A stretch of DNA of 64,000 bases. Source: a bacterium. GTDB taxonomy: Bacteria > UBA8248 > JACPRG01 > G963555815. Below, in pieces: positions 43,321-48,478 of the stretch. Position numbers and translations under genes: made by a program. Positions within the stretch are counted from its first letter, which is position 1; every line of letters starts with the position of its first letter. The notes under the pieces are model-generated. The model was not told the DNA's origin. It made no database searches and saw only the letters and a program-made list of their open reading frames with translations. Where the stretch lies: assembly GCA_963555815.3 (NCBI GenBank), contig CAUVWX020000001.1, positions 32,001-96,000 of the forward strand. The letters are read 5' to 3'.

Positions 43321-44427
43321 ATGCCGCCCATCACCGACGCCCCGCCACGATTGAGAGACCACCGACTCCTCTCCGTCTGGGAGAAAGTCCAGGCGGACGA
43401 GCGGCTCTCAAGGGATGAAGGACTTCTGCTGTTCCAGACCGAGGACCTTCTGGGTCTCGGGCAGATGGCCAATTTCGTCAAGCGGCGGCGCGTCGGGGAC
43501 TGGGTCTTTTTCGTTATCAACCGTTACATCAACCCCACCAATGTCTGCGTGCTCTCCTGTAAGTTCTGCGACTTTGCCAAAAAGAAGGGCGACGCCGGTG
43601 CCTTCGAGCACAGCGTCGAGGAAATACTGGGGATGATCAAGGACGGAGTCCGGGAGGTCCACATCGTGGGCGGCCACCACCCGGACTGGCCTTTCGAGTA
43701 TTACGAGGGCCTCATCCAGACCATCCACGACCACCACCCCCAGGCCCAGATCAAGGCCTTCACTGCCGTCGAGATCGACTACTTCTATCGGCGGTGGAAG
43801 ATACCACCGGAGGACGCGTTGACCCGCCTCAAGGCGGCCGGGCTTCACTCGATGCCCGGAGGGGGCGCCGAGATCTTCTCCAAGCGGATCCAGAAGGCCC
43901 TCGACTACACGGGCAAGGCGGGCGCCGAACGCTGGTGCGAGATCCACGGCATTGCCCATCGCCTGGGCCTGCGGACCAACGCCACCATGCTCTACGGCCA
44001 CATCGAGACCCCGGCTGAGCGCGTGGACCACCTTCTTCGCCTCCGGGCCCAGCAGGATGAGAGCGGCGGTTTCCTGACTTTCATCCCGCTCTCCTACCAG
44101 GTGGGAAACACAAAGCTGGTTCCCCGCCAGACCCCACCGACGGATGACCTCCGCACCGTCGCGGCCTCGCGCCTCCTTCTCGACAACTTTCCCCACGTTG
44201 AGGCCTACTGGGTAATGATTGGCGAGGCGACGGCCTCGGTGGCCCTCCACTTCGGCGCCGACGACGTCAACGGCACGTTGGAAGACGAGAGGATCGCCCA
44301 CGCGGCAGGGGCGGAAAGCCCTGCGGGCCTTGTGCGGGAACAGCTCTTGCGGATGATTCGCGACGCCGGGAAAACCCCCGTCGAGCGCGATGCGCTCTAC
44401 AACGTCGTCAAGATTTGGAACCCGTAA
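43321..44427 (+). CDS. mqnE: Aminofutalosine synthase (radical SAM)
   Basis: NPTNVCVLSCKFC, PGGGAEIF, TNATMLYGHIET, AYWVM. Confidence 0.9.
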   Translation: MPPITDAPPRLRDHRLLSVWEKVQADERLSRDEGLLLFQTEDLLGLGQMANFVKRRRVGDWVFFVINRYINPTNVCVLSCKFCDFAKKKGDAGAFEHSVEEILGMIKDGVREVHIVGGHHPDWPFEYYEGLIQTIHDHHPQAQIKAFTAVEIDYFYRRWKIPPEDALTRLKAAGLHSMPGGGAEIFSKRIQKALDYTGKAGAERWCEIHGIAHRLGLRTNATMLYGHIETPAERVDHLLRLRAQQDESGGFLTFIPLSYQVGNTKLVPRQTPPTDDLRTVAASRLLLDNFPHVEAYWVMIGEATASVALHFGADDVNGTLEDERIAHAAGAESPAGLVREQLLRMIRDAGKTPVERDALYNVVKIWNP

Positions 44428-44430
44428 CCC

Positions 44431-45177
44431 ATGCTCAAGATTGGGCACGTCCCGTACCTCAACTGTGAGCCGTTTTTCGCCTTCCTGTCAGGGTTCGAAC
44501 TCTCCCGGTTGAACCCCCGGATGCTCGGGCGTGCGGTGGCCGAGGGCACCGTTGACGCAGGTCCGCTCTCGCTGGTGGATTTCCTGAGATCGGATCTGGA
44601 ACTAACGCCACTCCCTTTTGGCATCGCCACCCGGGGCGCGGCCGGGAGCGTTTTACTCTTCTCACACCGACCACTTTCTGAGCTCGGCGGCGCGGTGCTC
44701 GGCGTCACCCCTGAGACCTGCACGTCCGTTGAGCTCCTCAGGATTCTCCTCACCCTAAAATATGAAGCCGTCCCTCGCGCATGGGTCGGGCTCGATGAGC
44801 CCTGCGATGCGGTGCTCTTCATCGGCGACCAGGCGATCCGGACGCTCAAGTCCCGCCCCCAGTTCCCCCACGTCATGGACCTCGCAAGCGAGTGGGTCTC
44901 GTGGACGGGGCTTCCCTGCGTCTTCGCCCGCTGGGCGGTGCGAGCCTCGGTTCCTGAGACGGAACAGATCGCCCTTCGGGACGCCCTCAGCGAGGCGCTG
45001 GACCGAGGCCTCGCGACACTTCCCCAGATCGCTCAAACCCGCCGCGACACAGGATTCAGCGAAGCTGAGGTGGTGAACTACCTGAAGGGGTTCACATATC
45101 GACTGGGGGACGAAGCGGAAAAAGCCATCGCCGAGTTCAGCCGACTCCTGAGCCTGGTGGAGGAACGGCGGTGCTGA
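44431..45177 (+). CDS. mqnA: Chorismate dehydratase
   Basis: IGHVPYLNCEP, IGDQA, WTGLPCVFARW. Confidence 0.88.
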   Translation: MLKIGHVPYLNCEPFFAFLSGFELSRLNPRMLGRAVAEGTVDAGPLSLVDFLRSDLELTPLPFGIATRGAAGSVLLFSHRPLSELGGAVLGVTPETCTSVELLRILLTLKYEAVPRAWVGLDEPCDAVLFIGDQAIRTLKSRPQFPHVMDLASEWVSWTGLPCVFARWAVRASVPETEQIALRDALSEALDRGLATLPQIAQTRRDTGFSEAEVVNYLKGFTYRLGDEAEKAIAEFSRLLSLVEERRC

Positions 45178-46244
45178 GCGAGATCCAGGCCAAGGTGAAC
45201 GCCGGCGAGCGGATTGCGCGCACGGAGGGGCTCTGGCTCCTCAGAGAGGCCCCTCTCTTGGAGCTCGGGGCCCTAGCACAGGAGATGCGTTTCAGACTCA
45301 TCCCCGAGCCGCGCATTACGTTTGTCATCGACAGCAATCCTAACTACACCAACGTCTGCATCACCGACTGCCAGTTCTGTGCCTTCTACCGAAAGCCCGG
45401 CCACCCGGAGGCCTACACGCTCACGGTGGAGGAGGTGCTCAAAAAGGTCGAGTTCGCCGCCGAGCGAGGCGCGACGACCGTCCTCTTGCAGGGCGGCCAC
45501 AATCCGGAACTCCCCCTGGAATACTATCTGGCGCTGGTCCGGGAGACCCGCCGCCGTTTTCCCCAGGTCACGCCCCACTTCTTCACCGCCTCGGAGATCC
45601 AGACCATCAGTCAAGTGGCCAAGCTCGGCGTGAGAGAGGTCCTGTCCTGTCTGAAGGAGGCGGGCCAGTACTCCCTGCCCGGCGGCGGCGCCGAGGTGCT
45701 CTCAGAAAAGGCGCGAAAGCGGATCGAGCCCAAGAAGGGCGGGCCGCAAGCCTGGCTCGAGGTCCACCGGGAGGCCCACCGACTCGGCTTCAAGTCCACC
45801 GCCACGATGATGTACGGTCACGTGGAGGGACCCGATGACATCCTCGATCACCTGGACGCCATCCGCGATCTCCAGGACGAGCAGGCGGGCTTCACCGCCT
45901 TCGTCCCCTGGTCTTTCAAGCCGGAAAACACGCTTTTGCGGAAATGGATCAAGCACTACGTCGGGCCGAATCAGTATCTCCGCATGCTGGCGGTGTCACG
46001 TCTCTACTTGGACAACTTCCCCCATATTCAGGCCTCCTGGTTCTCCGAAGGCAAGCGCGCCGGGCAGCTGGCGCTCCATTTTGGGGCGGACGACTTCGGC
46101 GGCACCCTCTTCGAGGAGAACGTGCACGCCGCCGCTGAGTTTGTGAACAAGACGACAGTGGACGAGGTTTGTAGCCTGATTCACGATGCCGGCTTCACCC
46201 CTGTCCAGCGCACGACCCTCTATGAGATCCTGAAGGTCTACTAA
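45171..46244 (+). CDS. mqnC: Cyclic dehypoxanthine futalosine synthase (radical SAM)
   Basis: NYTNVCITDCQFCAF, LQGGHNP, ATMMYGHVE, QASW, EENV. Confidence 0.9.
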   Translation: MLSEIQAKVNAGERIARTEGLWLLREAPLLELGALAQEMRFRLIPEPRITFVIDSNPNYTNVCITDCQFCAFYRKPGHPEAYTLTVEEVLKKVEFAAERGATTVLLQGGHNPELPLEYYLALVRETRRRFPQVTPHFFTASEIQTISQVAKLGVREVLSCLKEAGQYSLPGGGAEVLSEKARKRIEPKKGGPQAWLEVHREAHRLGFKSTATMMYGHVEGPDDILDHLDAIRDLQDEQAGFTAFVPWSFKPENTLLRKWIKHYVGPNQYLRMLAVSRLYLDNFPHIQASWFSEGKRAGQLALHFGADDFGGTLFEENVHAAAEFVNKTTVDEVCSLIHDAGFTPVQRTTLYEILKVY

Positions 46245-46245
46245 C

Positions 46246-47073
46246 TTAGACCGGATCCAGCGGCGGGATTTCGGGGGCGAAACCTTTTGCCTGAGCAGAC
46301 GAGAAGAGCCGCTCCAGGGCTTGCCGCCCCTCGGCCCCCAGCGTCACGGTGTAGTTGTTGACGTACATGAGGACGAAGCGCCGGCAGGTCTCCTTGTCGA
46401 TACCACGGCCGAACTGCATGGCGTACTCAAGGGCCTCATCCTCGTGGGAGTGGGCATACCCGATGGAACGACGGAGCGCCTCCGACAGCGTGGCCCCCAC
46501 GGTCTCCCCTAGATCACGCCGCACCACGTTAATCCCCAGAGGCAGCGGGAGGCGGGTTTCCCGTCCCCACTTCTTACCGAGGTCCAACACCTTGTGGAGA
46601 CCCATCGCCTGATAGGTAATCTGCCCTTCGTGGATGAGAAGCCCCAGCTCGGCCCGTCCCTCCAGGACCGTCTGTGGGATCTGATCGAAGGTCACCTCGA
46701 TAAACGGGGGGTCTCCGCAGTAGAGCCGGAGCAGGAGCGCCGCCGTGGTGTACCTGCCGGGGACGGCCACCGATCGGCCTGGAATCTCCCGCGGGTCCAT
46801 TGGCTCTCGAGCCACCAGGATCGGCCCGTACCCCTTCCCCATGGAGGCGCCGGGATCCATCACCCGGTACCGATCGGCCACCACGGCATAGGTGGCCGCG
46901 GAGATCGCAGTGACCTCGAGCTCCGCTGCGCGGGCCCGCCGGTTGAGGGACTCAATATCCTCAAGGACGTAGCGAATCTCGCACCCTTCCACCTGCACCT
47001 TCCCCGCGGTGAGGGCGTAAAACATAAAGGCGTCGTCGGGGTCCGGGCTGTGTCCGATCCGAATGATGGTCAT
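46246..47073 (-). CDS. mqnD: 1,4-dihydroxy-6-naphthoate synthase
   Basis: GHSPDPDDAFMF, DIESLN, GYGP, LIHEGQ, LPLPLG, MYVN. Confidence 0.93.
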   Translation of the reverse strand: MTIIRIGHSPDPDDAFMFYALTAGKVQVEGCEIRYVLEDIESLNRRARAAELEVTAISAATYAVVADRYRVMDPGASMGKGYGPILVAREPMDPREIPGRSVAVPGRYTTAALLLRLYCGDPPFIEVTFDQIPQTVLEGRAELGLLIHEGQITYQAMGLHKVLDLGKKWGRETRLPLPLGINVVRRDLGETVGATLSEALRRSIGYAHSHEDEALEYAMQFGRGIDKETCRRFVLMYVNNYTVTLGAEGRQALERLFSSAQAKGFAPEIPPLDPV

Positions 47074-47258
47074 CCGATGTCTCCACAAAGACTGCGATCT
47101 GAGAGAGGATTTCTAAAACCGCGCAGCGGTCTTGGCGCGAAAAGGTTACCACGAGGCCATGGCGAACGACATGGTCCACCTTTTACGAGCCTCGTGGGGA
47201 CGGGCGCCGAGGCCGAGACTAGAGGGCGCCCGTATCTTGAAAAAGAGGCACAACCGTT

Positions 47259-47547
47259 TTGAAGATCACCGCCGTCCGCCTAACACCTTTTGAGGCGCCC
47301 ATCTCGGGGGGGGCACGTCCGGACCTACGCAGAGGTAGAGCTGGAGGGCGTCCTCCTCCTGAGAGGAATCCGGGTGATTGAGAGGGAGAACGGGGGATGG
47401 TTTCTCGGCTACCCTTCTCAAAAGACGCGAGGTGGGCAACAGGACATGGTCGTGCCTATGGATAGAGACCTCAAGGCCTCCATCCGAGAGGCCGTGCTCT
47501 CGGCCTACCACCAGGTTTGCCAAGAACCGCCCGGGCAAAAACCTTAG
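47259..47547 (+). CDS. spoVG: SpoVG family nucleic-acid-binding protein, +1 frameshift in G8 run at 47306-47313
   Basis: MKITAVRL N-terminus in one frame; LRGIRVIERENGGWFLGYPS..IREAVLSAY in the next. Confidence 0.8.
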
Positions 47548-48401
47548 AGGAGACCCCTCAGGATGAGGGTGGCCCCCACTAAGGTGAAGAGGAGAAAGAG
47601 GACAACCCGGATGGTCCCAGGGTTGAGGTGGCGGTTGATGAGGGGGGCGATCTGGCCTCCCAAGAGGACCGCCGGGACGCACATGGCGGCGATGTTCCAC
47701 GGGACCTGAAAGTCGGCGATCCCCGTTCCGGTGACATAAAGCCTCGTTGCAACAGCCGCCGTCACCGTCCCCATCACAATCGGGACAGCCGTCGCCACAG
47801 CCACCCGAGGCGGCATCTTTTGCCCGACCACAAAATAGGTGGTCTTGAACTCCCCCACCCCAATCCCCACAAGACCCACGAAGAGGCCCCCAAGGGCTGA
47901 GATGAAGACCCCCAACGGGGTCCGCCTGAAGGCATAAACGTAGAGGCGGCCCTGAGAATCCGAAAGTCGTCTGACATAGGGCGAGGACTCGGGATCGAAC
48001 TGGGCCTCAGTCTTTAGGTGCGCAGAGAACATCAAGGCGGCCAGCGTGAGCAGGGTTAAACCCAGAACGAAGAGGAGGATCCCCTCAGGAATTCGATGGG
48101 CAAAGAGAGAGATGAGGACCGAAACGGGGACGCTCACCGCCAGGACGAAGCCCATGATGGGAAAGTCGATGACCTTCTGTCGCAAGTATCCCCAAGTGGC
48201 GCTCCCGAACCCAAAAACCTCAATGATGAGGCTGAGGAAGATAGCTTCCACCGGATGGATCACCTTCCCGCTAATCAGGGGAAGAACTAAGATGAAAAAT
48301 GGGGTGAACAACACGGCTCCCTCCACACTGGAGATTCAGGCCAGCAGTCAGAAGCCGATAGCGATGGGAAACATGTACCAGAACTCAAACCAATATTCCA
48401 C
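47544..48401 (-). CDS. TSUP (TauE/SafE) family transporter with two in-frame TGA codons (candidate selenocysteines)
   Basis: Multiple TM helices, GLFVGLVGIGVGE, PPRVAVAT, LLGGQIAP; SD AAGGGGGTGA before GTG 48401; TGA at codons 18 and 22. Confidence 0.85.
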
Positions 48402-48478
48402 TAAGTCTCACCCCCTTTCTGTTTGAATCTTTTAGATCAGAACCCGGGCTCCATCAGGACTCTTCGTCTAGAGGAAGC

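Follow-up and report, generated by a model that had tools for sequence, protein, structure and literature searches.

Two in-frame UGA codons in a TauE/SafE transporter gene are very likely read as selenocysteine

The question raised by this locus is whether a TauE/SafE (TSUP) gene, located on the reverse strand of the window (the whole stretch of 64,000 nucleotides that was analysed), is interrupted by two stop codons or encodes a membrane selenoprotein. The ORF caller places the start of the gene at GTG 48326, in the loop of the first of two hairpins considered below. The initial annotation regarded this start as too late and extended the frame to GTG 48401, preceded by a strong Shine-Dalgarno sequence, through two TGA codons spaced i/i+4. 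Each of these elements was found where it had been placed. The frame runs from GTG 48401 to TAA 47546-47544 and comprises 285 codons, the 18th and 22nd of which are TGA; its translation consists of (M)EYWFEFWYMFPIAIGF, TGA, LLA, TGA and ISSVEGAVLFTPFF. Full-length orthologues harboring Cys begin at the same position as GTG 48401 and the N-terminal part upstream from GTG 48326 is conserved. With the TGA codons read through, TauE (PF01925) was the sole Pfam match (97.3 bits for a cut-off of 32.6, residues 20-278), and no NCBIfam family was matched at E values up to 0.01. The sequence GGGGGTGA is likewise present upstream from the gene in L024, L025, L055, L056, and L075. The main features are as follows.

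47544..48401, reverse strand: complete TauE/SafE (TSUP, PF01925) coding sequence, 285 residues, GTG start, TAA stop, two internal TGA codons.
48408..48417, reverse strand: Shine-Dalgarno-like sequence AAGGGGGTGA, 6 nt 5' of GTG 48401.
48348..48350, reverse strand: TGA codon 18, inferred Sec18; TGA in 15/15 loci, Cys in class orthologues.
48336..48338, reverse strand: TGA codon 22, inferred Sec22; TGA in 15/15 loci, within the internal loop of the first predicted SECIS.

The TGA codons are not an assembly error. Contigs from runs X1 and X5, which belong to two studies, displayed no difference from the window between positions 47500 and 48500, and either of them may be its source. A contig from run X11 spans both codons, again with no difference, and no difference was listed in either codon for the diverged contigs of X12 and X15; X17 yielded no contig. 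Thus, the search for sense codons in other data, as proposed in the initial annotation, returned assemblies carrying the same TGA codons. Upstream from the gene are a ComEC-like gene and a DUF3465 gene, together with what are presumably mfd, surA, and pyrB, and a convergent SpoVG-like gene is located on the other side. The stop codon of the latter overlaps that of TauE. The SpoVG-like gene follows four genes (43321-47088 in the window) that we take to resemble the futalosine menaquinone pathway (mqnE, mqnA, mqnC, and mqnD).

In two clades, every locus with a visible 5' part of the gene (15 in total) has TGA at both codons; neither TAA nor TAG occurs there. Clade A comprises the window, G001 (96% identity), G002 (68%), and the metagenome loci L055, L056, and L075, with both TGA codons in six out of six; the relatives are labelled Nitrospinota and are 68-96% identical. 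Clade B (about 35% identity) belongs to the Acidobacteriota according to the NCBI names of cluster members. Loci L077, L078, and L080 of this clade (35-36% identity) have the same two TGA codons and a third one following CPC at codon 141. Two matches were obtained in 401 genomes sampled from the phylum reached through G127, one of them being G834 with three TGA codons. In the order of G834, the gene was found in 6 of 76 genomes, all from a single family (6/15); selB was present in the six genomes and tRNA-Sec in five.

L077 1401-2288, L169, and L171-L177: TauE forms of Acidobacteriota with three TGA codons, in which the cytoplasmic H-x3-CPC-U motif has a hairpin of its own; represented by 2-3 pieces in public protein sets.

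Public databases mostly carry these genes as N-truncated or split fragments. Of 143 short proteins examined in relation to clade B, 62 were middle fragments; all but one of these (61/62) start 1-2 residues before FTP, and 44 stop at xCPC or HCLC. The entries P0012, P0015, and P0137 are predicted to derive from genes with both TGA codons. Fragment P0410 has Gly after CPC, and entry P0367 has Trp at positions 18 and 22 and after HCPC.

According to the initial annotation, homologues devoid of Cys or TGA at the two positions would refute the proposal; instead, both columns were occupied by TGA or Cys in homologues. When 1.84 billion representatives were searched with a profile, 150 rows were returned, many of them full-length with CxxxC at exactly positions 18 and 22. 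In an alignment of 118 rows, which excludes short and very long rows and counts the query as Cys, column 18 was occupied by A64/C27/S16 and column 22 by M40/N22/C16/T15. Among the 117 homologues, Cys was present at column 18 in 26, at column 22 in 15, and at both in 15. The CxxxC rows include proteins named from a Halobaculum sp. and from a Deinococcus metagenome-assembled genome; WP_435066144.1 is one of the CxxxC homologues. Orthologues at the class level (43-50% identity) harbor F-C-x-C-L-x-A-T, with Cys at positions 16 and 18 and Thr at position 22. Since these are the nearest orthologues, Cys or Sec is not indispensable at position 22.

The initial annotation stated that none of selA, selB, selC, and selD lies in the window, which is right, and held that a genome lacking the Sec machinery would refute the proposal. 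All four genes were found elsewhere in the host genome (2.08 Mb, 95.7% complete): selA (E value of 1e-148), selB, which adjoins selA, the tRNA-Sec gene (selC), and selD, which has one internal TGA. The nine GTDB genomes with both TGA codons all have selB, and eight have tRNA-Sec, which is absent only from G917; both genes are present in G001 and G002. Of 51 genomes from the phylum of the window, 48 contained selB, and most class relatives have the Cys form. Thus, the use of Sec alone does not predict the Sec form of TauE. A second match to the tRNA-Sec model above the cut-off (50.4 bits) was observed at C1:678548-678636, a position at which ARAGORN lists no tRNA. TGA is the commonest stop codon of the host, ending 501 of 948 long coding ORFs, which does not correspond to genetic codes 4 or 25 and agrees with the earlier claim that TGA is not reassigned throughout the genome. 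TGA also terminates the TauE gene itself in L077 and L177.

The region 5' of the TGA codons was conserved in the manner expected of translated sequence. For codons 2-17, comparison of the window with L025 revealed 12 identical codons, 3 silent changes, and 1 replacement, and silent changes outnumbered replacements in 6 of 7 pairs. This pattern of substitution indicates that the segment 5' of the TGA codons is under purifying selection. Immediately 3' of the TGA codons, the proportion of identical codons at sites encoding the same residue in clade A was 0.89 (codons 23-35) versus 0.46 (codons 36-283); for the window and L025, it was 12/14 versus 70/158 (p=0.003). In contrast, the same measure was 0.43 and 0.45, respectively, in 37 Cys forms. 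Between clades A and B the values were 0.60 and 0.39, the pairwise comparisons being non-significant (p 0.33 and 0.11). Codon 29 was GCC in 9/9 TGA forms versus 8/37 Cys forms. These codon comparisons indicate that silent sites just 3' of the TGA codons are constrained only in the TGA forms.

The sequence following each TGA codon was predicted to fold into a hairpin, as claimed in the initial annotation: CUCCA-GUG-UGGAG after the first codon, with the loop starting at +20 (19-nt spacer), and GAGC-CGUGUU-GUUC after the second, with the loop starting at +21 (20-nt spacer).

48315..48342, reverse strand: predicted SECIS 1, lower stem GGC/GCC (+6-8 with +31-33), upper stem UCUCCA/UGGAGG, loop GUG at +20.
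48299..48326, reverse strand: predicted SECIS 2, stem GUGG-GGGAGC / GUUC-CCCCAU, loop CGUGUU at +21 from UGA22.

The bacterial SECIS model, as given in an excerpt of a 2026 review, has a G as the first or second loop nucleotide, at a distance of 16-37 nt from the UGA, and a folding energy of at most -7.5 kcal/mol (PMC13188914). We narrowed the test to a loop start at +17 to +26 and at least 4 contiguous pairs. Both TGA codons of the window passed (-10.1 kcal/mol for UGA18 and -10.0 kcal/mol for UGA22), as did 12/12 controls from the same genome, 79/300 TGA stops, and 84/300 Cys codons. UGA22 of L077, L078, and L080 failed; when forced, SECIS 2 of the Acidobacteriota forms reached only -4.8 to -9.2 kcal/mol. 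Folding as a check on the initial annotation therefore succeeded for both codons of the window but did not discriminate on its own, since Cys-form TauE genes passed in 26/37 cases at codon 18 and 22/37 at codon 22, and we rejected the presence of a hairpin as proof of Sec on these grounds. The rate in the Cys forms (L027-L052, codons 18-36) is far above the background of about 27% and could be a relic of ancestral Sec or an effect of the peptide sequence.

The lower stem of the UGA18 hairpin (GGC/GCC) encloses the second UGA and is common to both clades. Its three pairs are the same in all 12 distinct rows, even at two silent third positions, although codon 20 specifies Leu in one clade (A) and Thr in the other (B). 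The loop G is at +20 in clade A and at about +24 in clade B. Downstream from the third TGA of clade B is a stem of 7 bp (94% paired); a single change affects both of its sides, and shuffles yielded as much. Covariation above shuffles was detected neither in the lower stem of SECIS 1 nor in the third SECIS, nor was any detected in the RNAalifold consensus, and there was no compensatory change. The predicted hairpins fit the bacterial SECIS model and, backed by the conservation of silent sites, support Sec insertion without proving it.

We conclude that the two TGA codons are very likely read as Sec because the pair is conserved, Cys occupies the same columns in homologues, the Sec machinery is present, and silent sites are constrained. 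In all likelihood, the complex of SelB and tRNA(Sec) would decode UGA18 by means of hairpin 1. SECIS 1 and SECIS 2 cannot coexist because the latter reuses the 3' arm of the former. A sequential model is probable: the ribosome, four codons further on, would melt hairpin 1, and the freed 3' arm would then form hairpin 2 for UGA22.

The alternative that the TGA codons are true stops, the gene being a pseudogene or producing a truncated protein from GTG 48326 or a later start, has some support from broken copies in relatives. G003 has only a fragment of TauE flanked by insertion sequences, the 5' part of the gene not being found in this genome, and the gene is frameshifted in G919. Among Cys-form orthologues, those of G048 (L103), G011, and G029 are defective (TGA in place of the Trp8 codon, splitting of the gene, and a TAG codon). 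The host genome itself contains a short, apparently decayed TauE-like N-terminal fragment (C1:935957-936094, reverse strand), in which the Gly-rich loop is preceded, at a distance of a few residues, by an in-frame TGA. In addition, the RNA-library contigs X14 and X20, which may be DNA, cover only positions 47515-47731 and 47916-48143 and do not span the TGA region. Against true stops, the same two codons are TGA in every one of the 15 loci, in two phyla and exactly at the Cys columns; the 17 upstream codons are conserved with mostly silent change and a conserved Shine-Dalgarno sequence; and a truncated product would be devoid of half of the first re-entrant pair. The check for decay that the initial annotation had proposed came out in favor of Sec, as did its other refuting checks, codons 2-17 being under purifying selection, and we consider true stops to be very improbable despite the broken copies in G003 and G919. 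Reading of TGA as Trp or Cys by a changed code or by leaky readthrough is equally improbable, since TGA ends most long ORFs of the host (501/948) and the TauE gene itself in L077 and L177, the commonest residues at the two columns are A/C/S and M/N/C/T rather than Trp, the only tRNA with a TCA anticodon found in the genome is tRNA-Sec, readthrough of two or three successive leaky stops would produce little protein, and the Trp residues of P0367 have their simplest source in a gene caller using TGA as a Trp codon.

Three further observations were made on TauE copies. In G003, two inverted 1405-bp copies of an insertion sequence enclose the middle of the gene (L131 7214-10737). Genomes G004 to G006 returned only weak matches to the gene. 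The host also harbors an ordinary intact TauE at C1:997703-998440.

In phylogenetic trees, the two TGA clades were separate and located among Cys-rich branches bearing Glu27. A single clade of all TGA forms was rejected (AU test, p=0.002, for a quick tree and a group chosen after the tree had been seen). Sec therefore either arose twice or was ancestral and repeatedly replaced by Cys. In the orders of G301 and G327, 1 of 95 and 6 of 16 genomes, respectively, had matches, and those inspected were devoid of Cys at positions 18 and 22.

AlphaFold predicted ten helices with a pLDDT of 96 from 118 rows: a helix formed by residues 10-24, a loop (25-28), a helix (29-44), three long helices, a loop with a β-hairpin, and a repeat of this arrangement. 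The internal repeat was also detected by hhalign of the two halves (probability 92, 99 columns). The best structural match was BacA (Z 15.5, rmsd 3.7, 243 aligned residues), the next row having a Z score of 8.2. Foldseek returned BacA with an E value of 0.024 and a TM score of 0.54, and no match with an E value below 0.001. No solved TauE relative was found by sequence, and the ESM Atlas returned TauE clusters only. The loop charges agree with the topology of BacA and place the β-hairpin loop in the cytoplasm. The triple-Sec form has the same predicted fold, with CPCU in a low-confidence loop.

48330..48374, reverse strand: predicted helix 10-24 (first half-helix) carrying both Sec codons and followed by an S-V-E-G loop, from AlphaFold DSSP; its re-entrant role is deduced from the BacA match.
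48321..48323, reverse strand: Glu27, subfamily-specific acid in the first loop.
48219..48221, reverse strand: Glu61, family-conserved intramembrane acid, Glu in 90/118 rows.
47850..47852, reverse strand: Glu184, conserved acid after the second G-x-G-x-G loop, Glu in 105/118 rows.
47919..48014, reverse strand: predicted cytoplasmic loop and β-hairpin (residues 130-161), assigned from the charge pattern; Acidobacteriota forms have H-x3-CPC-TGA here, the window protein has no Cys here.

The re-entrant loops of BacA meet in the middle of the membrane at the active site, where Glu17 and Glu21 are within 7 Å of Ser27, according to an excerpt of the corresponding study (PMC5852022). By analogy, the protein likely adopts a BacA-like inverted-repeat fold in which helix 10-24 would be an outward re-entrant half-helix, with U18 and U22 near Glu27, Glu61, and Glu184. 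The initial annotation located both TGA codons in the first transmembrane helix; their position in a helix held, but that of a full transmembrane helix did not, residues 10-24 being predicted to form a re-entrant half-helix. U18 and U22 are predicted to lie on the face of this half-helix directed toward the loop, in a register deduced from helix positions and not confirmed by sequence. Mapping of individual residues onto BacA by profile comparison was rejected (hhalign probability of 17).

Concerning function, a TauE/SafE transporter in which Sec18 and Sec22 occupy the predicted pocket and bind a soft metal or metalloid ion is the reading that we favor, with chances that we place slightly below even. 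Provided that both residues are Sec, the chances are about even that a thiophilic ion (for example Hg, Cu(I), Cd, or As(III)) would be held by two selenolates together with carboxylates; in members with a cytoplasmic His/Cys/Sec cluster, this cluster would then pass the ion on. A soft cation or metalloid is favored because the pocket would combine selenolates with carboxylates (Glu27) and because Cys clusters occur in the cytoplasmic loop. Glu27 was present in 13/15 CxxxC rows versus 10/81 non-Cys rows, and a Cys pair in the cytoplasmic loop in 6/15 versus 1/81, both comparisons involving related rows and hence counts that are not independent. Clade B has H-x3-CPC-U in this loop, and the window protein has no cytoplasmic Cys cluster. 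An excerpt of the 2026 review links most Sec-containing transporter subunits to resistance against metals or metalloids (PMC13188914). Neither a conserved gene neighborhood nor metal-resistance genes were found in the loci examined. Beside Cys-form genes (L058 6196-7866, L062 6043-8289, and L067 5910-8156) are what we take to be two UGSC-type-like ORFs and xanthine-dehydrogenase-like molybdoproteins.

The same double selenoprotein might instead transport a sulfur or selenium oxyanion or a polysulfide (sulfite, thiosulfate, selenite), the Sec pair contacting or transiently binding the substrate, as the initial annotation had suggested in proposing that the pair binds or relays S/Se species. This could make the protein a selenium uptake route; the three Cys residues of YeeE/TsuA provide a parallel for such contact or binding. 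Excerpts of published work provide several arguments in this direction: TSUP proteins are predicted to carry sulfur compounds, TauE being a sulfite exporter (PMC5840216); YeeE/SoxT transporters need three Cys residues (PMC11582611); opposed helix N-termini and Gly-rich loops suit an anion, as in BacA (PMC5852022); and, in the part of the review concerned, no specific high-affinity selenium transporter is known (PMC13188914). The hosts are also Sec users with many selenoproteins. However, the presence of Glu27 at a position occupied by Gly in most family members disfavors a bare anion, and none of the loci examined contained linked sel, sox, tusA, or rhodanese genes. The CxxxC forms also include a Halobaculum sp., and haloarchaea are not known to have Sec. 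An S/Se substrate is thus one candidate only, and a rather unlikely one, since the evidence from Glu27 and from the Cys/Sec clusters of the cytoplasmic loop leans slightly toward a soft metal or metalloid.

Improbable, too, is a membrane redox relay or enzyme, in which a Sec18-Sec22 diselenide would send electrons across the membrane to thioredoxin-fold selenoproteins, in the manner of the CcdA/DsbD family. The i/i+4 spacing permits a bridge, the third Sec of the cytoplasmic CPCU could be the inner partner, the BacA fold already hosts an enzyme, and the host genome encodes many candidate selenoproteins with thioredoxin or glutaredoxin folds. However, orthologues with C-x-C and Thr, and members with Ala/Met or Ala/Asn, keep the scaffold together with Glu61 and Glu184, as expected of positions determining substrate specificity, and the TGA loci have no neighbor with a thioredoxin fold. 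Returning to the carrier that we favor, we propose more tentatively that this TSUP subfamily is a selenol-lined carrier of metal, metalloid, or selenium species, with two Sec residues in the pocket and a third one in the cytoplasm in Acidobacteriota, specified by two overlapping SECIS that would refold, the second UGA being nested in the first; it is possibly the missing specific selenium importer of bacteria rich in selenoproteins. TSUP proteins are widespread. The Sec or Cys residues at columns 18 and 22 probably indicate positions that determine specificity.

A new selenoprotein subfamily in a known transporter family, relying on known Sec decoding in an unusual overlapping arrangement, is well supported. 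Table 1 of the 2026 review lists 119 selenoprotein families and contains neither TauE nor a UxxxU motif (PMC13188914). The terms TauE, TSUP, and sulfite exporter are absent from the text of this review, from the deep-Sep main text and 4 supplements, and from the BSepDB main text and 1 supplement (about 4 million characters); TauE and sulfite exporter are absent from the main text of the Haft and Gwadz preprint. A membrane transporter with two or three Sec residues is thus absent from the 119-family inventory of 2026. The gene resembles TSUP/TauE-SafE proteins (PF01925, TC 2.A.102) by its Pfam match, two internal repeats, Gly-rich loops, and length of about 285 residues, and differs from them by two or three in-frame UGA codons at Cys columns, by Glu27, and by a long cytoplasmic β-hairpin loop. 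Like this protein, the YeeE/YedE thiosulfate transporter selenoprotein (PF04143, GUxSG) and TsuA/SoxT are membrane transporters in which Cys or Sec is thought to contact the substrate, but they belong to another family (no PF04143 match here), with one Sec in the listed form and nine transmembrane helices. Sec is interpreted as a metal or organometal contact in the membrane transporters SaoP (NF040733), SO_0444 Cu/Zn efflux (NF033936, UxC), and a putative mercuric transport selenoprotein (PF02411), which are unrelated families with one Sec each; SaoP is part of a selenoprotein operon, whereas the window gene stands alone. Double decoding has precedents in ORFs with two close Sec codons, namely TsoB (NF045694, UxxxxU), Prx-like proteins, and FmdB (UxxU) (PMC13188914), but UxxxU spacing is absent from the table of the review, the folds are different, and there is no model match here. 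None of the listed families of Sec transporters (YeeE, SaoP, SO_0444, MerT-like, TsoB) was matched. BacA/UppP (PDB 5oon) shares the fold, ten helices with two broken helix pairs, and an i/i+4 pair (Glu17/Glu21) before the first loop, but is only 10% identical; its EFLPVSS and PGxSRSG motifs are absent here, and the host genome has its own BacA. Two UGA codons 12 nt apart with overlapping hairpins offer a compact test of SelB on closely spaced codons.

The host genome was also scanned for other TGA-containing ORFs. Sixteen ORFs from a motif scan were tested by read-through, and 11 matched known families across the TGA: Prx/TlpA/redoxin, CMD (2), HMA, DsbA, ArsC, Grx (2), and rhodanese. The other five were discarded, two reading into NAD synthetase or pth-rpsF and three having no family. 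A scan based on a codon model was set aside, as it produced 296 noisy candidates. The 11 further selenoprotein candidates (L185-L195) are located as follows.

First six: C2:497800-498648, C1:613032-613667, C1:1027917-1028234, C1:572555-573151, C1:993961-994653, C1:521635-522390.
Last five: C2:609939-610295, C1:627831-628415, C2:589279-590511, C1:582374-582640, C1:712743-713279.

They comprise a Prx-like protein, two CMD/AhpD proteins, a stand-alone HMA domain (CxxU), a redoxin, a DsbA-like protein, ArsC, TlpA, a glutaredoxin fused to a thioredoxin-reductase-like domain (UxxC), a Grx-like protein, and a rhodanese (CxU). Every one of them has a G-loop hairpin at +18 to +26. A short ORF at C1:832495-832665 (L196), which had no Pfam match, contains CPC-TGA followed by an 8-bp hairpin with the loop GGC at +21 (-13.4 kcal/mol) and may encode a small selenoprotein. 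The CPC-U motif is common to this ORF and to the loop of the Acidobacteriota TauE.
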